Virus record (IMG/VR): IMGVR_UViG_2734482785_000011
Coordinates: 1 to 9,005 of that record
Direction: 5' to 3' (one strand)
DNA length: 9,005 nucleotides
DNA from: a virus
Lineage: Duplodnaviria > Heunggongvirae > Uroviricota > Caudoviricetes
Numbering within the stretch: position 1 is the first letter of the stretch; each line of letters starts with the position of its first letter. Below the pieces are notes generated by a model. That model was given only the letters and a program-made list of their open reading frames with translations. It was not told where the DNA came from and searched no databases. The translations under genes and the position numbers were made by a program. Positions 1 to 9,005 of this stretch are shown piece by piece.

Positions 1-473
1 CGATAGGTTGCAACACCAGTTGCACGTTGAGTCATGAACACGTCGGTTTGAGTCCAAGTGTCACCACCGAATTCTGGCAGGACGTCAGTCCACGCACCGA
101 TGTCGTATGCTACACCGTAGTTACGGCCGTAATCGATGGAGCCGTAGTCACCGAATTTCAGGCCAGCGAAGGCAAGACGGGTTTTGTCTTTGGAGGAACC
201 CTGAGATTCAGCGCGGTTGCCTTTGAATTCATATTCCCACTGACCGAAACCAGTCAGTTGATCGTTGATTTGGGTTTCACCTTTGAAGCCAAGACGAGCA
301 TAAGTTTTGTCACCATCGTGCTTATCGTTAGAGGAGAAGTAGTGCTCGGCATTAACTTTTCCATACAGATCCAGTTTGTTGCTGTCTTTGTTATAAATCT
401 CTGCTGCCTGAGCAGACATCGCCATTAATACTGACGCAGCTACAGCAGAGATTGCCACTGTTAATTTTTTCAT
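1..473 (-). CDS. nmpC: General porin of the OmpC/OmpF/PhoE family, N-terminal part only (start codon at 473-471, gene continues past position 1); NmpC/OmpD/Lc-type prophage porin
   Basis: Reverse-complement translation from the ATG at 473-471 gives [48 protein letters not shown]...[25 protein letters not shown]...[59 protein letters not shown]: signal peptide followed by the AEIYNKD mature N-terminus and conserved porin blocks. AGGA Shine-Dalgarno about 8 nt upstream on the minus strand. Symbol assigned from recalled similarity to NmpC, not from a search. Confidence 0.85.
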
Positions 474-716
474 CGTGAATCCTTAGTCCTTTTCGGAACT
501 ATTATTAAAAAATATTGTCACTGCGGCCTAAATATACATCTAATCGGTATGGCTATTTCAAGATACGGGGTTTATTTAATGATTTAGAGTGTGATCAAGA
601 TCTCGTTTATGCGTGGTAATAATTATTGGAGATGTTTTTGTAATGAGAGATGTGTTTCTGAAATGCAATGAAAAGTTATTATTTTTGTATTTTATAATGT
701 AAATTTTGCGTACTGG

Positions 717-730
717 TTTACGTACGTAAA
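717..730. promoter_or_regulatory. Perfect 14-bp palindrome TTTACGTACGTAAA in the divergent porin/small-ORF intergenic region; candidate operator for a dimeric regulator
   Basis: Sequence is its own reverse complement; it lies in a 450 bp AT-rich region between divergently oriented genes, next to a TATAAT hexamer at 693-698. Confidence 0.3.
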
Positions 731-923
731 AATTTAAATATGATGTTAAGAGTGGTCACTTTGCCACACAGCTTAAACCAGCCGCCAAGCGGGGTTTTTT
801 ATGCCCGAAAAGCGGCGCAGTACGTTAAACGCGCTGGTGGTTGCGAATACAGGTCTTTCAGCTTGATGGCTTTTTCGACAAGAGTTATTGGTATGTCACG
901 TTAACCAGAAAAGGGAAAAAGAC

Positions 924-1121
924 ATGCTAAAACAGCAGGATATGACCGAAACTGCCAGAGTGGTGTTTAATGAATTAAGCGTCACCGAACCGGCGACCGT
1001 CGGGGAAATTGCGCAGAATACTTACCTTTCACGCGAACGCTGCCAGTTAATACTGACCCAGCTTGTTATGGCGGGTCTGGCAGATTATCAGTTCGGTTGT
1101 TACAGACGCCTTCCTCAGTGA
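924..1121 (+). CDS. Small hypothetical protein (65 aa) with winged-helix/HTH-like character; alternative TTG start at 888
   Basis: ORF track 888..1121; the ATG at 924 is preceded by AGGGA about 7 nt upstream. Translation MLKQQDMTETARVVFNELSVTEPATVGEIAQNTYLSRERCQLILTQLVMAGLADY has an HTH-like segment (TVGEIAQNTYLSRERCQLIL). The stop codon sits inside a terminator hairpin. Confidence 0.5.
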   Translation: MLKQQDMTETARVVFNELSVTEPATVGEIAQNTYLSRERCQLILTQLVMAGLADYQFGCYRRLPQ

Positions 1122-1131
1122 AGGCTTTTTT
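1108..1131 (+). terminator. Rho-independent terminator (stem GCCTTC/GAAGGC, 6-nt loop, T6 tract) ending the small ORF transcript
   Basis: gccttc ctcagt gaaggc tttttt read directly; it overlaps the TGA stop at 1119-1121. Confidence 0.6.
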
Positions 1132-1271
1132 ATTTGTGGTAATGGGCGGCTGGTGGGTGTTAGCGGCACCTGCCAGCCATCTGCTCATGCGTTGGGGTCA
1201 CAAGCAAACCTCAGGCCCATCTGCTTTGCGCAAAAGCGGAATGAGCCTATCAGAGAAGTGCTTATTGATCT

Positions 1272-2318
1272 ATGGCTAATACTGTAAAAATATCCAGTTG
1301 TGAGTTAATCAACGCTGATTGCCTGGAATTTATCCAGACCTTACCGGAAAACTCTGTCGATCTGATAGTCACGGACCCGCCATACTTTAAAGTGAAGCCC
1401 GAGGGCTGGGATAACCAGTGGAAGGGCGACGATGATTATCTGAAATGGCTGGACCAGTGTCTGGCGCAGTTCTGGCGGGTACTGAAGCCTGCCGGAAGTC
1501 TCTACCTGTTCTGTGGTCATCGCCTGGCATCTGATATCGAAATCATGATGCGTGAGCGCTTTAATGTGCTGAACCACATTATCTGGGCGAAGCCGTCCGG
1601 ACGCTGGAACGGGTGCAACAAGGAAAGCCTTCGGGCGTATTTTCCGGCAACAGAACGCATTCTGTTTGCTGAACATTATCAGGGGCCATATCAGCCCAAA
1701 AATGACGGCTACGCGGCAAAGGGGCGCGAGCTTAAGCAGCACATCATGGCCCCGCTGATTTCTTACTTCCGTGATGCGCGTGAATCACTGGGGATAACGT
1801 CGAAACAGATAGCAGAAGCCACCGGAAAGAAAAACATGGCTTCGCACTGGTTTGGTACCAGTCAGTGGCAGTTACCGAACGAAGCTGATTACAGAAAACT
1901 GCAGGCGTTGTTTGCGCGTATTGCAGCAGAAAAACATCAACGCGGGGAACTGGAAAAGCCACACCACCAGCTGGTCAGCATATATAGTGAACTGAACCGG
2001 CAATATGCCAGCCTGCTGGATGAGTACAAATCTCTGCGGCGTTATTTTTCCGTATCGGCTGCCGTTCCGTATACGGATGTCTGGACGCACAAGCCTGTGC
2101 CGTATTACCCCGGCAAACATCCCTGTGAGAAACCGGCGGATATGTTGCGTCAGATAATTACCGCCAGCAGTCGTCCGGGAGATTTGGTGGCTGATTTTTT
2201 TATGGGGTCAGGCTCAACAATAAAAGCGGCACTTTCACTGGGACGCTGTGCGATTGGCGTGGAGCTGGAAGAAGAGAGATTTAATCAGACTGTGAACGAA
2301 ATAAAAAACTGCTGTTAA
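1272..2318 (+). CDS. DNA methyltransferase, beta-class amino-MTase (probably N6-adenine; N4-cytosine not excluded), 348 aa, no restriction partner in the window
   Basis: DPPY catalytic motif (motif IV) near the N-terminus (LIVTDPPYF) and an FxGxG AdoMet-binding motif (motif I) near the C-terminus (DFFMGSGST). The IV-before-I order defines the beta class. Single ATG start at 1272 (in-frame TGA stop at 1266-1268 just upstream); weak Shine-Dalgarno. Confidence 0.9.
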   Translation: MANTVKISSCELINADCLEFIQTLPENSVDLIVTDPPYFKVKPEGWDNQWKGDDDYLKWLDQCLAQFWRVLKPAGSLYLFCGHRLASDIEIMMRERFNVLNHIIWAKPSGRWNGCNKESLRAYFPATERILFAEHYQGPYQPKNDGYAAKGRELKQHIMAPLISYFRDARESLGITSKQIAEATGKKNMASHWFGTSQWQLPNEADYRKLQALFARIAAEKHQRGELEKPHHQLVSIYSELNRQYASLLDEYKSLRRYFSVSAAVPYTDVWTHKPVPYYPGKHPCEKPADMLRQIITASSRPGDLVADFFMGSGSTIKAALSLGRCAIGVELEEERFNQTVNEIKNCC

Positions 2319-2832
2319 TTTTTATGTTGGTGTTTTCTTTATTCTATAAAAACACAAAACATATACTTATATTTGCAGTAATTGACGCTATTTTTTGTTG
2401 AAAAAATATCCGGGCTTATTAATATCCATTCCCGGTTCCGAGGGAGAATAGGGAAATAATGCATACGTGGTCGTTTTGTTCCTCCTGAGGAACCACTGAC
2501 TAAGCTTTTTATCGTTGTGGCACTGGCGCATTGTTTTTGGCGAGGAAACAGGAGCACATGCTCATTCCGGGCTGTTATGGCCTCAGTGCTTATTTTTGGC
2601 CATCAGAATGGCGCATTGTCGAAAAGAAGTAGCAGGATTTAGCGTTGAGAGGCTGATGATGCGTCATTCTGATGCTGTTGCAGATATAATTTGAGGTGTA
2701 TCCCAGTGCGGGAGTGGCCGGGAATATTTTACGCCGAAGGTCACAACATATTGCTTATTGAGGCAGGTGATATGTTTCGGGAGGCACCCGACACCTCAAA
2801 CCTTATAATGATAGCGTGTTCTTTTAGTCATT

Positions 2833-2857
2833 AACCGCCGTGTCAGGCGGTTTTTTT
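2833..2857 (+). terminator. Strong rho-independent terminator (stem AACCGCC/GGCGGTT, loop GTGTCA, T7 tract); candidate late-operon terminator (tR'-like) or 3' end of an untranslated leader/sRNA
   Basis: aaccgcc gtgtca ggcggtt ttttt read directly. No plus-strand ORF of 60 aa or more in the 500 bp upstream. Confidence 0.6.
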
Positions 2858-3094
2858 ACGCAGCGGTATAAAAATATCATATTTAATAATTTCCAGAGAA
2901 ATAAAATTGTTTGTATATTGTCGGGCATGTGTTACTCGTGCGTGAAAAGTTCGCAAAAAATAAGAACAAAAAGATAAAGTTACATAACTTGACTTGATGC
3001 GTTATTGCTCCTGCATCATTTAACCGTATTATCAAAGGCGGTTCTGAGGGGGGGCACCTGTTCACCGATGATATTGATTCCCTGAAGAACCAAT

Positions 3095-3170
<76 letters not shown>

Positions 3171-3173
3171 TAT

Positions 3174-3248
<75 letters not shown>

Positions 3249-3609
3249 ACAGTAGACGAAATCTGGTTATATTAGGCACTGCACATTGATATGTGGGGCG
3301 TTTTCCTGATTCCTTACCGCGTCCTGTTCTGTAATATGTGATGCAGGTTACAGTCCAGTGCCATTTTTTTACAATAATGGCATGGTGCATTGTCGGTGGA
3401 GATTTTGTATTTCCTGGCAGGGGCCGATGATGCACTATCCCTGTGTTGTAAAATAATACCGCAGAGGTGTTCCTCAGTGCGAGGTGGAGGGAAGAGTCGG
3501 TTTAGCGAGAAAACACAGTACCTGTTATCAGGTCAGATATTTCGGGAGTCCTCCCCTGACACCTTTGTTTTATTACAATAAAAATACCCTATTTTCTGCA
3601 TTGACCAGC

Positions 3610-3630
3610 CGCCACCCAGGCGTTTTTTTT
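3610..3630 (+). terminator. Weak terminator-like hairpin (CGCC/GGCG, 5-nt loop) followed by a T8 tract
   Basis: cgcc accca ggcg tttttttt read directly; the short stem makes this the weakest of the stacked terminators. Confidence 0.35.
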
Positions 3631-3652
3631 ATTCACAATCCTGTTTCTTATG

Positions 3653-3673
3653 GCTCGCTACGGCGAGCTTTTT
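3653..3673 (+). terminator. Rho-independent terminator (stem GCTCGC/GCGAGC, loop TACG, T5 tract)
   Basis: gctcgc tacg gcgagc ttttt read directly. Confidence 0.5.
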
Positions 3674-3760
3674 CATATCTGCGTCACGTCCGGCGTACAT
3701 CGCATCAGATAACACCACACAAAAGGCATCTGCGGGTGTCTTTGACGGGGTGTTTTTTAC

Positions 3761-3782
3761 GGGCCGCTGGTGGCCCTTTTTT
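3761..3782 (+). terminator. Rho-independent terminator (stem GGGCC/GGCCC, loop GCTGGT, T6 tract) about 20 nt upstream of the holin-like gene start
   Basis: gggcc gctggt ggccc tttttt read directly; followed by AGGAG and the ATG at 3802. Confidence 0.6.
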
Positions 3783-3801
3783 ATTTACAGGAGAAAAAAG
3801 T

Positions 3802-4194
3802 ATGTCTGAACCCTTGTCCGGTTCCGGCACGGCTGCGGCGCTCGGCGGGGCGACGGTATTCGGGCTGTTTACCGGAACGGATTTCGGGATTGTGTTTGGT
3901 GCGTTCGCCGGAGCGTTATTTGTGGCAACGATGCCGCAGCAGCTTTCAGCCTGGCGTGTGGCGGCACATTTTCTGGTGTCGTTCATTGTCGGTGTGCTGG
4001 GCGCAGAGGTTCTGGCATCCTGGCTGGTAAAGCATACAGGGTTTGACGGTGCGCCTGTCGACGCACTGTGTGCAGTGCTGGTGTCAGTGGTGTCGGTGAA
4101 GATTCTCTCGTTCATCCACCAGCAGGATATTGCATCACTGGTGTCTGGCCTGTTCTCCCGCCTGCGGGGTGGAGGAGGCGGCAATGTTAAGTAA
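3802..4194 (+). CDS. Putative holin (130 aa, 3-4 predicted transmembrane helices), first gene of the lysis cassette
   Basis: ATG at 3802 preceded by AGGAG at an appropriate spacing. The ORF-track entry 3484..4194 is the same frame with a spurious N-terminal extension. Product MSEPLSGSGTAAALGGATVFGLFTG...VLGAEVLASWLV...ALCAVLVSVVSVKILSF is strongly hydrophobic with a short charged C-terminus, and sits immediately upstream of an endolysin. Confidence 0.6.
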   Translation: MSEPLSGSGTAAALGGATVFGLFTGTDFGIVFGAFAGALFVATMPQQLSAWRVAAHFLVSFIVGVLGAEVLASWLVKHTGFDGAPVDALCAVLVSVVSVKILSFIHQQDIASLVSGLFSRLRGGGGGNVK

Positions 4195-4462
4195 CCTTCC
4201 CGGATTACTGAATGTGGCGTTATGCACGGTTATCGTGCTGACGCTCTTTTTTTATCGTCGCCGTGATTCCAGACATAAACCGCTGATGTCATGGCTGGCC
4301 TGGCTGCTGATGCTGCTGTATGCCTTTGCGCCCCTCAGCTATCTGTGTGGTCGCCCGTTAGCAACGGGCTGGCTGGAAGTGTTTTTTAATCTGCTGTTCT
4401 GCGTGCTGGTGATACGCGCACGCGGGAACGTCACAAAAATCTTTCCATTGTTGAGGCACTGA
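4184..4462 (+). CDS. Small membrane protein (92 aa, 2-3 transmembrane helices); putative second holin, antiholin or lysis-associated protein
   Basis: ATG at 4184 preceded by GGAGGAGG; overlaps the stop of the upstream gene (4192-4194) and ends 1 nt before the endolysin ATG, indicating translational coupling. Product MLSNLPGLLNVALCTVIVLTLFFYRRRDSRHKPLMSWLAWLLMLLYAFAPLSYL... The ORF-track TTG start at 4130 is rejected in favour of the ATG. Confidence 0.55.
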   Translation: MLSNLPGLLNVALCTVIVLTLFFYRRRDSRHKPLMSWLAWLLMLLYAFAPLSYLCGRPLATGWLEVFFNLLFCVLVIRARGNVTKIFPLLRH

Positions 4463-4463
4463 G

Positions 4464-5009
4464 ATGAAATCAAAGGACGTCATTTTTGATGAAATCCTCG
4501 GAAAAGAGGGTGGCTACGTCAATCATCCGGATGATAAAGGCGGGCCGACAAAATGGGGTATTACGGAAAAAGTCGCTCGCGCTCACGGATATCGCGGCGA
4601 TATGCGCGACCTTACACGCGGTCAGGCGCTGGAAATACTCGAGGCGGATTACTGGTTCGGACCACGTTTTGACCAGGTCGCCGCATTATCCCCTGATATT
4701 GCTGCAGAGTTGTGTGATACCGGTGTGAATATGGGGCCGTCCGTAGCATCGAAAATGCTCCAGCGCTGGCTGAACGTTTTCAACCTGCAAGGCAAATTGT
4801 TCCCGGATATGGACGCAGACGGGCGTATCGGCCCCCGCACGATTAATGCACTACGGACTTATCTGCAAAAACGCGGCAAAGACGGCGAACTGGTGATGCT
4901 GAAGGCGCTGAATTGCACGCAGGGTGACCGCTATCTGGAGCTGGCAGAAAAACGCGAGGCCAACGAGTCGTTTGTCTACGGCTGGATGAAAGAGCGCGTA
5001 GCAGTTTAA
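4464..5009 (+). CDS. Endolysin, glycoside hydrolase family 108-type N-terminal domain with a C-terminal peptidoglycan-binding domain (181 aa), no signal peptide
   Basis: N-terminal motif ILGKEGGYVNHPDDKGGPTKWGIT matches the GH108 signature (EGGY catalytic region). C-terminal half (RIGPRTINALRTYLQ...) resembles PG_binding_3 domains. GAGG Shine-Dalgarno 7 nt upstream. Confidence 0.9.
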   Translation: MKSKDVIFDEILGKEGGYVNHPDDKGGPTKWGITEKVARAHGYRGDMRDLTRGQALEILEADYWFGPRFDQVAALSPDIAAELCDTGVNMGPSVASKMLQRWLNVFNLQGKLFPDMDADGRIGPRTINALRTYLQKRGKDGELVMLKALNCTQGDRYLELAEKREANESFVYGWMKERVAV

Positions 5010-5103
5010 AAACTGACGCTGAAGTGCTGAACACCCTCAACTCATGCTGGCTCTTTTCTGGGGCTACGATGAGCGAAAGTAAGGGGCATAGTATCAGATA
5101 GCA

Positions 5104-5141
5104 AAAACCCCGGCTGCGGTAACAGTCCGGGGTTTTCTGTT
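5104..5141 (+). terminator. Rho-independent terminator after the lysis cassette; perfect 10-bp inverted repeat AAAACCCCGG/CCGGGGTTTT flanked by A- and T-tracts (possibly bidirectional)
   Basis: aaaaccccgg (5104-5113) and ccggggtttt (5127-5136) are exact reverse complements; a T-rich tract follows. Confidence 0.6.
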
Positions 5142-5205
5142 TCTGGCCTTGGGTAAGGCAAAGGAGAACATGAGGAAGTATAAACTAATCCTGTTGAGGT
5201 TGACT

Positions 5206-5352
5206 ATGAAAAACGGCCTTGAATTGAAAGCGCCTGTAACTGATGACATCAGCAGAGCGGTGGCTTTTGCCATTAAGTGGGTGGCGGTTGGCATCGCCGT
5301 GTCTCCGATACTGTATGGGCTGGCAAAATTGATTGTTGCTCTGAAATCGTGA
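5206..5352 (+). CDS. Small single-TM peptide (48 aa), hypothetical; paralog of the 5533..5619 peptide
   Basis: ATG at 5206 with GAGG 6 nt upstream (alternative ATG 5170, TTG 5149). Product MKNGLELKAPVTDDISRAVAFAIKWVAVGIAVSPILYGLAKLIVALKS has a C-terminal hydrophobic helix. Confidence 0.4.
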   Translation: MKNGLELKAPVTDDISRAVAFAIKWVAVGIAVSPILYGLAKLIVALKS

Positions 5353-5532
5353 GTGGTGATGGGTGTCATGAGGGACATGGCAACTGATGATAAAAGCAGA
5401 AACAACTCCGCAGGGTGCTGACGATGCTGCAAAAATCATCGCGGTATGTCGGGGAATCAGGTACATACTGACGCCAGTTGCATGGATTATTTGTACCGCA
5501 CTGGTTGCATACACAACAATTTATTTAAACAG

Positions 5533-5619
5533 ATGAGTGCTGATTTTATTCGGGCGGTGGCTTTTGCCATTCGTCTTGTGGCGGTCGCTGTTCTGATTTG
5601 GGCTGTGCGTTGGTGGTGA
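5533..5619 (+). CDS. Small hydrophobic peptide (28 aa from ATG 5533; 57 aa if started at ATG 5446), paralog of the 5206..5352 peptide; possibly a decayed copy
   Basis: Product MSADFIRAVAFAIRLVAVAVLIWAVRWW shares the core RAVAFAI[KR].VAV with the upstream peptide. The 18-nt run gcggtggcttttgccatt is identical at 5257-5274 and 5554-5571. No clear Shine-Dalgarno. Stop TGA at 5617-5619 lies 1 nt before the next ATG. Confidence 0.3.
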   Translation: MSADFIRAVAFAIRLVAVAVLIWAVRWW

Positions 5620-5620
5620 T

Positions 5621-5803
5621 ATGACGCGAAAACACTGGACACACAGAATGCCGCGAACGGCGGCGAAATGGGCACTGGTAGCGATACTGGTGCCTTTTTT
5701 ATTGGTGGGATGCGTCAGTCTGGATAAGGCGCGCCAGCTTTTCGGTACAGCTTCTCAGGTCTGCGAAATTGTTGATAGTGTCCGGCAGTGTATGCAGAAC
5801 TGA
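5621..5803 (+). CDS. Small lipoprotein (60 aa precursor; lipobox LVGC; mature part about 30 aa with three cysteines); alternative start ATG 5648
   Basis: Product MTRKHWTHRMPRTAAKWALVAILVPFLLVGCVSLDKARQLFGTASQVCEIVDSVRQCMQN: positively charged n-region, hydrophobic core, L-V-G-C lipobox. Confidence 0.5.
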   Translation: MTRKHWTHRMPRTAAKWALVAILVPFLLVGCVSLDKARQLFGTASQVCEIVDSVRQCMQN

Positions 5804-5846
5804 CCGACGGTGAGAGCAGAATATTTTTTTAGAGGAGCGAAATTCT

Positions 5847-6197
5847 ATGCCATCACGAATCCCACACGCCTGCCGTAAGCGTGGATGTGCAGGTACAACC
5901 ACAGACAGTTCTGGTTACTGCGATAAACATCGTGGCGAAGGATGGGTACAGCATCAACGCGGACTGAGCCGCCACCAGCGTGGCTATGGCTCGAAATGGG
6001 ATGCCATACGTGCGCGCATACTGAAGCGTGATAATCATCTGTGTCAGAACTGCCTGCGCAATGGGATAGCCGTTGAAGCCAGAACTGTGGACCACATCAT
6101 CCCGAAAGCGCATGGTGGAACAGACGCAGACAGTAACCTGCAGAGTCTGTGCTGGCCCTGCCATAAAGCAAAAACAGCGCGCGAACGCATCAATTGA
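5847..6197 (+). CDS. HNH homing-type endonuclease (116 aa), the packaging-associated HNH protein of HK97-like phages
   Basis: GAGGAG Shine-Dalgarno 9 nt upstream of the ATG at 5847. HNH motif ...TVDHIIPKAHGGTDADSNLQSLCWPCHKAKT plus N-terminal Cys-rich segment CRKRGCAGTTTDSSGYCDKH. Sits immediately upstream of the terminase genes. Confidence 0.9.
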   Translation: MPSRIPHACRKRGCAGTTTDSSGYCDKHRGEGWVQHQRGLSRHQRGYGSKWDAIRARILKRDNHLCQNCLRNGIAVEARTVDHIIPKAHGGTDADSNLQSLCWPCHKAKTARERIN

Positions 6198-6343
6198 TAA
6201 CAGTTCCCATCTGTAGGGGAGGGGCGGGTCAAATCTCTGCAACCCTGGCTGCTCAGTACCGCCGCCTGACCTTTCCTCGCATCGCCGCAGGTTCGAAAAC
6301 TTTTTTTGGAATGTGATTGAATGATTGATAGGTAAAACCGATT
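6198..6343. other. Probable cos (cohesive end/packaging initiation) region between the HNH gene and the terminase small subunit
   Basis: Position only: in HK97-like phages cos lies between the HNH gene (right genome end) and TerS (left genome end). The 146 bp non-coding interval contains a G-rich segment gtaggggaggggcgggtc. The exact cosN cannot be defined from sequence alone. Confidence 0.3.
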
Positions 6344-6826
6344 ATGTCAGGACCCCCGAAAACCCCGCCACGCCTGCATTTGATACGAGGCAACCCCTCA
6401 AAGCGCCCCGTTAAAGACCCAAAAAAAACCGCTAAAAAGGATGAAAAAGGTCTCCCTAAAATTCCGCAACATTTAGGGTCGCAGGGGAAGTACTGGTTCA
6501 GGCGAATGGCGGAAGAACTGAATGCGGAAGGGATCATTTCTCAGCTTGATGCGCGTGCACTCGAGTTACTGGTGGAAGCCTACACCGAATACCGGCATCA
6601 CTGCGAAACACTTGATGCTGAGGGTTATACCTACCGCACGGAAACGCAGAACGGTGATGTGCTGATTAAGGCACACCCGGCTGCTGCGATGAAAGCGGAT
6701 GCCTGGAAGCGGATCCGGGCGATGCTTGCAGAGTTTGGTATGTCACCGGCAAGCCGGGCTAAAGTAAATACCGCCGGACCGGATGATGTTGATCCGCTGG
6801 CGGAGCTTTTAAAAGCGAGAGACTGA
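6344..6826 (+). CDS. Terminase small subunit, P27 family (160 aa)
   Basis: Product MSGPPKTPPRLHLIRGNPSKRP... with basic N-terminus and conserved LHLIRGNPSKR-type motif typical of P27-family TerS. Its stop overlaps the TerL start (TGATG). Confidence 0.85.
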   Translation: MSGPPKTPPRLHLIRGNPSKRPVKDPKKTAKKDEKGLPKIPQHLGSQGKYWFRRMAEELNAEGIISQLDARALELLVEAYTEYRHHCETLDAEGYTYRTETQNGDVLIKAHPAAAMKADAWKRIRAMLAEFGMSPASRAKVNTAGPDDVDPLAELLKARD

Positions 6827-8583
6827 TGGCAAAAGTGGCTGACGGGATCCGCTACGCCGAACGTGTTGTTGCAGGAGAAATTGTCGCTGGCGAATTTGTC
6901 CGTCTGGCCTGCCAGCGTTTTCTTGATGATCTGAAGTACGGCGAAGAGCGGGGGATTTATTTCAGTGAACCTCGTGCGCAGCACATCCTGAATTTCTACA
7001 AATTTGTGCCCCATGTGAAAGGGGCGCTGGCAGGCCAGCCCATTGAACTGATGGACTGGCATGTATTTATCCTCATTAATATTTTTGGTTTTGTCATTCC
7101 GCTGGTGAATGAAGAGACCGGGGAAGTTGTCATGCGCAGCGATGGCAGCGGACGCCCGGTGATGGTGCGCCGGTTCCGGACGGCGTACAACGAAGTCGCC
7201 CGTAAAAACGCAAAATCAACCCTGTCATCGGGTATCGGTCTGTATATGACGGGGGCAGATGGTGAAGGCGGGGCTGAGGTGTATTCAGCCGCAACCACGC
7301 GTGACCAGGCCAGAATCGTGTTTGAAGACGCCAAAAATATGGTCAGAAAAGCCCGGTCGACACTCGGGCGCTTGTTTGATTTCAACAAGCTGGCGATTTA
7401 CCAGGAGCAGAGCGCATCAAAATTTGAACCGCTTTCCTCGGATGCAAACAACCTGGACGGTCTGAACATCCACTGCGCCATTATTGATGAGCTGCATGCA
7501 CATAAAACCCGCGACGTGTGGGACGTTCTGGAAACGGCAACCGGTGCCCGTCTGCAGTCCCTGTTATTTGGTATCACCACGGCGGGCTTTAACAAGGAAG
7601 GGATTTGTTACGAGCAGCGCGATTACGCCATTAAGGTATTGCGAGGCTATAACAGCGACGTGGAGGGCGCGGTAAAAGACGACTCCTACTTTGCGATCAT
7701 TTACACGCTCGATGAGGGAGATGATCCGTTTGATGAAACGGTCTGGCAGAAAGCGAATCCGGGCCTGGGCATCTGTAAACGCTGGGATGATCTGCGTCGT
7801 CTGGCGAAAAAAGCGAAGGAGCAGGTCTCTGCGCGGGTGAATTTTTTCACAAAACACATGAATGTGTGGGTAACAGCAGAGTCTGCCTGGATGGACATGA
7901 TTAAGTGGGAGAAGTGCGAATACATTGCCCCACGACATGAGCTGAAAACGTATCCCATGTGGGTAGGCGTTGACCTTGCTCATAAGATTGATATCTGTGC
8001 GGCGGCAAAACTCTGGCGAACCGATAACGGGCATGTTCATGCCGATTTTAAATTCTGGCTTCCGGAAGGACGGCTGGAACGATGCTCGCGGCAGCAGGCA
8101 GAACTTTACCGGAAGTGGTCGGAGATGGATAAGCTGATTCTGACGGATGGTGATGTTATCGATCATGCTCAGATAAAAAGTGACTTACTGGAATGGATTG
8201 GCGGTGAAAACCTCAGGGAACTGGGATTTGACCCGTGGAGCGCGATGCAGTTCAGCCTGGCACTGGCTGAAGAAGGGATACCGCTGGTGGAGGTTCCGCA
8301 GACGGTCCGCAATCTGTCAGAGGCCATGAAGGAAACGGAATCACTGGTCTATGCCGGGCGTTTCCATCACAGCAATCATCCGGTCATGAACTGGATGATG
8401 TCTAACGTTACGGTAAAACCGGACAAAAACGACAACATCTTCCCGAATAAATCCACGCCTGAAGCCAAAATCGACGGCCCTGTTGCGATGTTTACAGCAA
8501 TGAGCCGGATGCTGGTCAATGGCGGTGAACCGGAGCCGGATCTGTCTGAACACCTGATCAGTGTTGGTATCCGCTCGCTTTAA
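6826..8583 (+). CDS. Terminase large subunit (585 aa), Terminase_1 / HK97-like family
   Basis: ATPase-domain blocks [18 protein letters not shown] and [21 protein letters not shown], and DELH (Walker B-like) in [18 protein letters not shown]; size and position between TerS and portal. Confidence 0.95.
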
Positions 8584-8594
8584 CCGAGGGCATT

Positions 8595-8777
8595 ATGTTT
8601 CTGATAATTCTCACGCCACTGGTGGGCGTGCTGGGGGCGCTTTTGCTGTCGTATGGCACATGGCTGATTTATCCCCCGGCAGGTTTTGTTGTTGCCGGGG
8701 CGCTGTGTCTGTGCTGGTCGTGGCTGGTTGCGCGTTATCTCGATCGCGGTCACCGGGTTGCCTCCGGAGGTGAGTAA
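8595..8777 (+). CDS. Small membrane protein (60 aa, two predicted TM helices) between TerL and portal; hypothetical
   Basis: ATG at 8595 with GAGGG 4-5 nt upstream; product [60 protein letters not shown]. Its TAA stop overlaps the portal ATG (TAATG at 8775-8779). Confidence 0.45.
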
Positions 8778-9005
8778 TGTTTTTCCTGGGGCTTTTTCAA
8801 CGCAAAAATAACACCCCCGTCACAACGCCCGGGATGCTTGCGGAAGAACTTGGATTGTCATACGACACCTATACCGGAAAGCGGATCAGCAGCCAGCGGG
8901 CCATGCGGCTGACGGCGGTGTATTCCTGCGTCAGGGTGCTGGCGGAGTCTGTTGGTATGCTGCCCTGCAGCCTCTACAAAATCACCGGCACCCTTAAAAC
9001 ACGGG
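8777..9005 (+). CDS. Portal protein, HK97 family, N-terminal part (gene continues beyond the window end)
   Basis: Translation [71 protein letters not shown]... matches the conserved N-terminal region of HK97-type portals (AMRLxAVYxCVRxLxESVxxLP). Confidence 0.85.
   Translation, partial: MFFLGLFQRKNNTPVTTPGMLAEELGLSYDTYTGKRISSQRAMRLTAVYSCVRVLAESVGMLPCSLYKITGTLKTR

Follow-up and report, generated by a model that had tools for sequence, protein, structure and literature searches.

A probable structured RNA of the STnc100/PasD family in the non-coding stretch between a methyltransferase gene and the tRNA genes of a lambdoid prophage

The DNA analysed here, 9,005 nucleotides of a virus of the class Caudoviricetes (IMG/VR record IMGVR_UViG_2734482785_000011, positions 1 to 9,005; the whole stretch is referred to as the window), is the entry of the late region in a lambdoid prophage. 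A porin gene, a small PHROG_331 gene and a DNA methyltransferase gene are followed by non-coding DNA (2319–2860), two tRNA genes, two holin genes, an endolysin gene, an HNH endonuclease gene and the genes for the small and large terminase subunits (Table 1). A sequence-only reading of 2319–2860 had regarded it either as the leader of a Q-dependent late promoter, comparable to the pR'/tR' region of lambda, or as a small RNA (sRNA), and much of its description stands: the longest plus-strand open reading frame (ORF) between 2319 and the tRNAs, with a TTG start (2515–2694), has 59 codons and none reaches 60; no Q-like protein is found among the window ORFs; and the strong intrinsic terminator, a stem at 2833–2852 followed by seven T, ranks first in the terminator scan. 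A decayed protein gene was rejected, as no ORF in 2339–3065 has a Pfam or PHROG match. Of the two proposals it is the sRNA that is supported, since the 3' 200 nt match the STnc100/PasD family of prophage sRNAs, and we consider it probable that 2398–2859 is a single unit of transcription that yields a structured non-coding RNA (ncRNA), a divergent variant of this family, here termed the GAGGUG subfamily. The unit is called copy A, as a paralogous copy B lies behind the tRNA genes.

Table 1. Genes and RNA features at the entry of the late region (positions in the window)
Feature	Position	Strand	Remarks
Porin gene	1–472	minus	Start codon at 472, runs off the left end; divergent from the late genes
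Small PHROG_331 gene	888–1121
DNA methyltransferase gene	1272–2318		Directly 5' of the non-coding stretch
Sigma-70-type promoter	2398–2425	plus	Predicted by promoter scan; TTGAAA (2398–2403)-16-TAATAT (2420–2425); start site at about 2430
Leader hairpin	2434–2494	plus	Closed by GGUUCC/GGAACC; alignment A3 and single-sequence fold
Module U	2519–2590	plus	Branched, closed by GGCACUG(G)/(C)CAGUGCU; RNAalifold and single-sequence fold
U run	2591–2597	plus	Short, after module U
P0	2598–2676	plus	Long hairpin containing the inverted repeat; arms 2601–2621/2654–2674, 32-nt loop
TATAAT	2685–2690	plus	Proposed -10 hexamer of the sequence-only reading; in the 16-nt linker between P0 and P1; pairs with 2803–2807 in the minimum-energy fold
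Cloverleaf domain	2690–2800	plus	Five helices, homologous to the STnc100/PasD core
P1	2690–2699/2791–2800	plus	Closing helix
P2	2701–2704/2710–2713	plus	Loop GUGCG, 2705–2709
P3	2714–2719/2739–2744	plus	Nested hairpin
P4	2745–2756/2765–2776	plus
P5	2777–2781/2787–2791	plus	Loop AGGCA, 2782–2786
Invariant family core	2777–2795	plus	UCGGGAGGCACCCGACACC; P5 hairpin plus the start of the P1 3' strand
Linker	2801–2832	plus	A/U-rich, single-stranded in folds; joins cloverleaf to terminator
Intrinsic terminator	2833–2859	plus	AACCGCC-GUGUCA-GGCGGUU followed by U7; 3' end of the unit
tRNA-Thr(UGU)	3095–3170	plus	ARAGORN, Rfam; between the two unit copies
tRNA-Gly(UCC)	3174–3248	plus	ARAGORN, Rfam; between the two unit copies
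Unit copy B	3275–3635	plus	Paralogous; module U, P0 at 3363–3457, cloverleaf from about 3464, terminator at about 3605–3632

Members of the family are known as STnc100 (RF02076), as PasD1 and PasD2 in enteropathogenic Escherichia coli (EPEC) and as EcOnc13, EcOnc27 and sRNA103 in enterohaemorrhagic E. coli (EHEC). In EPEC and EHEC few prophage RNAs are as abundant as STnc100, PasD and EcOnc27, which also flank Shiga-toxin genes. PasD and STnc100 are one family, located near Q and holin/lysozyme genes (Zhu, Shabalina, Storz; bioRxiv 10.64898/2026.05.13.724894). PasD1 is abundant and validated by Northern blotting, with estimated coordinates NC_011601:1060260–1060432 (PMC8550237), and STnc100 overlaps the Hfq-bound sRNA EcOnc27/sRNA103, just 3' of stx2B (PMC12711010, PMC4104026, PMC7873438). 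Both PasD and EcOnc27 were recovered with Hfq and mRNA partners (PMC8550237, PMC12711010, PMC4104026, PMC7873438). In a permissive Rfam scan, 2664–2863 of the window aligns to the full STnc100 model (positions 1–206) with 38.1 bits and E = 1.4e-5. The window element has a closing helix of the form GGUG...CACC with covarying outer pairs (P1), the invariant hairpin CGGGAGGCACCCG immediately 5' of the 3' strand of that helix (2777–2795), and a linker with an intrinsic terminator and U tail at its 3' end. The family core pattern, CGGGAGGCACCCGNCACC, matches once in the window against 0.01 matches expected.

Searched against phage genomes with megablast and blastn, the region returned almost nothing; the element is too divergent for BLAST, and pattern scans with the exact core were therefore needed. 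In such scans the general family core has exact matches in more than 119 viral contigs and the core variant of the window in 59, many of which belong to the GAGGUG subfamily, the window element included. A global MAFFT alignment of all core-bearing elements was poor in the variable middle, so that the canonical family and the GAGGUG subfamily were analysed separately. Among 5426 complete E. coli genomes, only CP196316 (strain AH19B041; the closest relative, L001 in our numbering of related loci) carries 2319–2860 at high identity (97%), with the gene order Q, hypothetical gene, methyltransferase, element, tRNAs and holins. Judged by the gene orders of the window and L001, the element lies between Q and the lysis genes, beside tRNAs, a slot that matches that of other family members.

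The cloverleaf is supported by covariation. In an alignment of 20 distinct GAGGUG-subfamily sequences (A2, 31 pairs), 98.3% of the cells are paired and 12 pairs have changed on both sides, as against 40–51% and 0–3 pairs in controls with slid partners. Compensatory shifts are also evident between subfamilies: GUGGUG/CACCAC in P1 becomes GAGGUG/CACCUC, with AUGGUG/CACCAU and GCGGUG/CACCGC elsewhere and GAGGCG/CGCCUC in L123 and L125, and CCGGG/CCCGG in P5 becomes UCGGG/CCCGA. Folded alone, the window cloverleaf adopts the same five helices (-44.9 kcal/mol, z = -3.6), and the terminator fold has -12.4 kcal/mol and z = -3.0 relative to shuffles. Most subfamily members keep the terminator stem, ACCGCC/GGCGGU, and their loops differ. 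Conservation is highest in the structured core and in its loops (P2, GUGCG; P5, AGGCA), and the linker is variable. This linker is a candidate seed and Hfq-contact region, since the seed of PasD, UGUGAG, occupies the equivalent linker. The P2 and P5 loops could form a contact of 3–4 bp (UGC with GCA), which may be likened to the D-loop/T-loop contact of tRNA; both loops are invariant.

Conserved structure continues on the 5' side of the cloverleaf. The sequence-only reading had noted a 10-bp inverted repeat here. The repeat exists, although its second arm, CATTCTGATG, is at 2665–2674 rather than 2664–2673, and it is longer than claimed, comprising 16 nt at 94% in a repeat search (2601–2616/2659–2674) and reaching about 21 pairs when G-U pairs are counted (2601–2621/2654–2674). 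In a second alignment, of 14 subfamily sequences (RNAalifold, modules U and P0, 47 pairs), 94.9% of the cells are paired and 14 pairs have changed on both sides, whereas slid partners give 34–54% and 0–3 pairs. Helix 1 of module U is paired in full (100%), and its inner helices 2 and 3 have changed on both sides. The P0 helix of the RNAalifold consensus comprises 28 pairs, 95.9% paired, with 7 changed on both sides and many G-U pairs, and extends to about 33 pairs in other members. P0 alone folds with -33.8 kcal/mol (z = -4.8), and 2511–2860 as a whole has z = -4.35. Many positions swap G-C or A-U with G-U, an alternation that works only in plus-strand RNA, which identifies the coding strand as plus. 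From the alignments and folds, therefore, the repeat is an RNA stem, as the sequence-only reading had offered for one of two possibilities, conserved through compensatory and G-U changes in paralogues, and nearly all of 2519–2859 is conserved RNA structure. Between about 2519 and 2859, such structures follow one another on the plus strand: module U, P0, P1–P5, the linker and the terminator. The length and shape of P0 suggest a candidate processing stem of the RNase III type.

The predicted promoter upstream of module U is itself conserved: both hexamers are unchanged in five related loci while the spacer drifts, and the version in L134, TTGAAA-16-TATTAT, stands within otherwise diverged sequence. 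In L122 and L125 a promoter of this type runs straight into tRNA-Thr, and in L123 the sequence that follows is tRNA-Thr-like and unannotated, with an annotated tRNA-Gly after it. The leader hairpin behind it is the leader that precedes tRNA-Thr in these relatives. The terminator scan found no terminator between this promoter and 2833.

Copy B was recognised by alignment with L001 and by direct and inverted repeats within the window. It lies directly after tRNA-Gly, and its inverted repeat (3363–3396/3424–3457) is paralogous to P0. The core of copy B is intact in L001, where it scores 29.9 bits against STnc100. B-type units are found in 419 of the 5426 complete E. coli genomes (about 8%), and none of the 12 records listed (12/12) has an ncRNA annotation under the match; eleven have nothing there and the twelfth only a hypothetical protein. 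No conserved promoter belongs to the B-type units themselves, which are probably transcribed together with the tRNAs; an internal promoter candidate in copy B, GTTACA-17-TACAAT (3347–3375), was not relied on, as it is unconserved in other members. In L128 and L145 two family modules are joined directly, no promoter or terminator intervening, an arrangement suggestive of polycistronic synthesis and processing. STnc100 units also occur in tandem arrays of 4–6 beside tRNA genes, in L011 (2265–3380) and L068 (4349–5513 and 8357–8555).

Compared with STnc100/EcOnc27/sRNA103, the window element shares the full-length model alignment, P1, the hairpin after P1, the hairpin that runs into the P1 3' strand, the linker and terminator, and the slot between Q and the lysis genes, often beside tRNAs. 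It differs in the compensatory substitutions of P1 and P5 and its sub-threshold score, in having a nested P3 instead of a pseudoknot and no proximal promoter before P1, and in about 170 nt of additional conserved structure on the 5' side (module U and P0). Furthermore, no convergent partner of the AsxR/AgvB type was found at the window element by the Rfam scan, which gave no such match at E up to 1 beside the terminator, and no minus-strand terminator was seen beside 2833–2859 on reading the sequence, beyond the general terminator scan no dedicated scan having been made.

PasD1 and PasD2 of EPEC E2348/69 (homologues of EcOnc13) diverge from the Rfam model to the same degree (37.7 bits for PasD1) and occupy a similar slot, 3' of moron genes and 5' of the holin. 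PasD is an Hfq-associated RNA of about 172 nt (Northern blotting, RIL-seq) whose 5' end is the first base of P1. PasD also has its own promoter, TTGACT-18-TAAAAA, has kept the pseudoknot (AUGAUC/GAUCAU), has lost the P5 hairpin and carries a linker and seed unrelated to the window linker. The window RNA can further be likened to 3'ETS-leuZ of E. coli, a regulatory RNA that derives from a tRNA primary transcript or promoter and is released by processing; that RNA, however, is a short spacer fragment, and the one in the window a large structured module that stands by itself and has a terminator of its own. Overall, the STnc100/PasD kind of sRNA is already known, and the GAGGUG subfamily is a new variant of it.

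Several observations weigh against this interpretation. The score of 38.1 bits is below the STnc100 gathering score of 47, although a sub-threshold score is normal for diverged members, since the validated relative PasD1 scores no higher. The promoter of the family, TTGACx-17/18-TAAATT/TAAAAA, which ends about 7 nt before the closing helix and is seen in PasD1 and the canonical copies, is absent here, and in the GAGGUG subfamily the canonical pseudoknot is replaced by the nested P3 hairpin. The U run could stop some transcripts short of the cloverleaf. The exact arrangement of copy A is rare, being found in one of the 5426 E. coli genomes and in two viral contigs (L134 and L141), and because of this rarity copy A could be a recent duplicate under little selection. 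The P5 core of copy B is mutated in the window (CGGGAGTCCTCCCCTGACACC). Moreover, the 5' end, processing, Hfq binding and targets that we propose for the subfamily are putative.

The consensus line of Rfam for STnc100 does not show the pseudoknot. In canonical members, a segment of 6–10 nt that follows the first hairpin base-pairs with the loop of another hairpin, the one located before the invariant core. A simple search found this pairing in 14 of the 15 testable canonical members, in quite different sequences, and also in PasD. Covarying examples are CCAGUC/GACUGG, AAUGACUG/UGGUCAUU and GUUCCAGCAG/UUGCUGGAGU, and the canonical loci with the pseudoknot include L003, L007, L011, L039, L043, L055, L065, L071 and L109.

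The region is a mosaic, which bears on the view that copy A is a non-functional relic of a duplicated or recombined tRNA-linked B-type unit whose helices survive through youth only. The segment 2334–2498 is the tRNA leader of relatives, abutting tRNA-Thr in L122 and L125, and homology to the leaders of these two loci ends at about 2498. On the other flank, 2881–3094 (215 nt), directly 5' of tRNA-Thr, is 70–74% conserved in a large part of the 212 E. coli genomes that match, and in L124 a segment of this type follows a DUF1133 (Q-like) gene. The linker and terminator of the window resemble those of the B-type unit in L125. As flanks, linker and terminator thus match segments of separate relatives, copy A has the appearance of a unit that came to lie, by insertion or duplication, between a tRNA promoter and its tRNAs. 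A relic would also fit the rarity of the arrangement, the loss from copy A of the small hairpin that B-type copies have between P0 and P1, the loss of P5 from copy B in the window, and a possible tRNA 5' remnant at 2496–2506. Nevertheless, the five cloverleaf helices, P0, module U, linker and terminator of copy A are all intact, and the fold is far stabler than shuffles. L001 differs at several paired positions without a broken pair, for example by a change from G-U to A-U in P3, and in L134 the cloverleaf and P0 are the same, and the module U ahead of them differs but keeps its closing helix. We therefore regard a relic as unlikely, though it is the alternative that survives best.

Two details of these flanks may be added. 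The sequence at 2496–2506, CTGACTAAGCT, resembles the 5' end of tRNA-Thr (GCCGACTTAGCT) exactly where the leader homology stops; a tRNA-Thr remnant at this place is a weak candidate, because module U has a similar flank before it in L134 and L176 as well. The segment 2881–3094 contains TTGACT (2990–2995) and may hold a tRNA promoter or the late promoter of another Q type.

A different alternative accepts a functional core and questions how it works: the RNA could be a structured element embedded in a tRNA operon that mimics tRNA or binds a protein, and not a seed-pairing sRNA. Possible roles would be those of a processing or 'punctuation' element or of a decoy for a tRNA-binding factor. Conservation centred on the core and its loops, with a variable linker, suggests that there is room for a core-centred role. 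Moreover, the helices resemble a class II tRNA in their order and in the lengths of the junctions (P1, 2–3 nt, a 4-bp P2, P3, a long P4 and a 5-bp P5 leading directly into P1), the units adjoin tRNA genes, they abut each other without promoter or terminator in L128 and L145, and tandem arrays reach 5–6 copies. However, neither ARAGORN nor the Rfam tRNA model recognises the unit, the P5 loop has 5 nt and not 7, a CCA end is missing, no partner protein is known, and PasD and EcOnc27 were recovered with Hfq and mRNA partners. Such a role is thus quite unlikely in our estimation. In its most specific form, which we hold to be decidedly improbable, the unit of about 345 nt (module U, a hairpin of 21–33 bp, a class II tRNA-like cloverleaf and the terminator) would be a tRNA mimic, excised by nucleases of the tRNA/rRNA type at P0 (RNase III) and P1 (RNase P/RNase E), with invariant loops that bind a partner, and would not, or not only, be an Hfq-dependent seed-pairing sRNA. 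If this were true, the partner might be a host tRNA-targeting defence nuclease, with the RNA as its decoy, or a factor that acts on the neighbouring phage tRNAs.

The sequence-only reading had given most room to a late promoter. Spelled out, TATAAT at 2685 would be the -10 hexamer of pR', a transcript of about 165 nt would end at tR' (2833–2859), and Q would load there for the transcription of lysis and head genes. The hexamer is indeed perfect, it lies about 145 nt 5' of a strong terminator and upstream of the lysis genes, and the length of the transcript resembles that of the 194-nt 6S RNA of lambda. The pR'–6S RNA–tR' region of lambda and StxS likewise produce short terminated transcripts before the lysis genes, with a terminator that is read through by Q-modified polymerase. 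However, no usable -35 hexamer accompanies TATAAT, and with four occurrences in the window against 3.24 expected the hexamer is as frequent as by chance and alone carries no weight. It is absent at the equivalent position in other subfamily members and sits, unlike in the lambda and StxS leaders, inside conserved RNA structure, between two conserved helices and 2 nt from P1. Q-dependent late promoters carry a Q-binding element and, in the early transcribed region, a -10-like pause element; here that region would be P1 itself, and a start about 7 nt 3' of the hexamer would remove the P1 5' strand. For these reasons TATAAT is not taken as a promoter; a weak internal start is conceivable at most. 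The terminator is present; read-through by Q-modified polymerase would be shared by any terminator between pR' and the lysis genes.

Position argues in the same direction. The leaders of lambda and StxS begin a few tens of nucleotides after the Q stop codon. The pR' hexamers of lambda are 43–72 nt behind it, and prophage PP4 of E2348/69 has a clear pR' homologue at the same place (within 45 nt of the stop; pR' begins at most 45 nt from the Q stop codon in both), with PasD1 located 1.2 kb further 3', behind two genes. In L001 the Q gene (PF06323) ends about 1.95 kb 5' of the element, with two genes between them, and is followed at once by a pair of its own, the -10 hexamer TAAATT (within 20 nt) and a terminator; this terminator and all sequence after it are collinear with the window from 778 onward. 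The element is about 2 kb from the position that Q has in L001. In Stx2 phages the family member comes after stx, which is itself 3' of pR' (PMC12711010, PMC4104026, PMC7873438). Since pR' adjoins Q and family members are far downstream, the element lies inside the late operon and not at its start. No sequence similarity to the lambda 6S region was evident by reading, a comparison made without running an alignment. Taken together, these observations make a late promoter at TATAAT very improbable. A DNA-level element, either the operator pair for a repressor proposed alongside the RNA stem or recombination boundaries between mosaic modules, would account for conserved blocks between mosaic segments and for a repeat that flanks promoter-like hexamers, but is scarcely credible, because pairing kept by G-U would turn into A-C mismatches if the other strand or DNA half-sites were what mattered, changes are compensatory along 28 pairs, and the arms differ in sequence between paralogues with complementarity kept.

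Another promoter-like sequence, TTTACG-16-TATGAT (717–744), is found on the downstream side of the porin gene and is followed by a terminator (778–803); it would give a transcript of about 55 nt. This unit is a candidate for the true pR'/tR', although its homologue in L134 follows an ORF6N gene and not Q. The terminator shared by L001 and the window (778–803) follows Q and the TAAATT hexamer in L001.

Several terminators precede the holin (1108–1125, 2833–2852, about 3605–3632, 3652–3669 and 3761–3776). Q-modified polymerase would have to pass all of them, and in the lysogen they would also shield the lysis genes from the constitutive tRNA and sRNA promoters. The last two fall within the spurious N-terminal part of a 236-aa ORF (3484–4194), an artefact of an upstream GTG: the match to the holin family is limited to residues 107–236, and the annotation of relatives puts the holin start at the equivalent of about 3806.

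On the reading that we favour, a structured RNA of the GAGGUG subfamily, transcription would start at the 2398–2425 promoter and not at TATAAT, and a primary transcript of some 425 nt (about 2430–2857) would end at the intrinsic terminator. An RNase III-type cut at P0 may then trim it to a PasD-like mature RNA of about 170 nt. On the model of PasD and EcOnc27, this RNA would be made in the lysogen and bound by Hfq via its U tail and linker, and the linker would pair with host or phage mRNAs; Hfq association and linker pairing are thus the function that we infer for the subfamily. The terminator would also shield the downstream lysis genes from the constitutive promoter, and in the lytic cycle it would be read through by Q-modified polymerase that started at a late promoter located farther 5'.

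The case illustrates that a lone TATAAT followed by a terminator is poor ground for calling late promoters. The GAGGUG subfamily has escaped annotation, scoring below the Rfam threshold and being without an ncRNA feature in the twelve sampled records. Compared with the sRNA described so far, its unit has a much greater size and more structure; it also seems to use the same promoter as phage tRNAs, and it accounts for the recurrent 'empty' stretch between the Q-region morons and the lysis genes.

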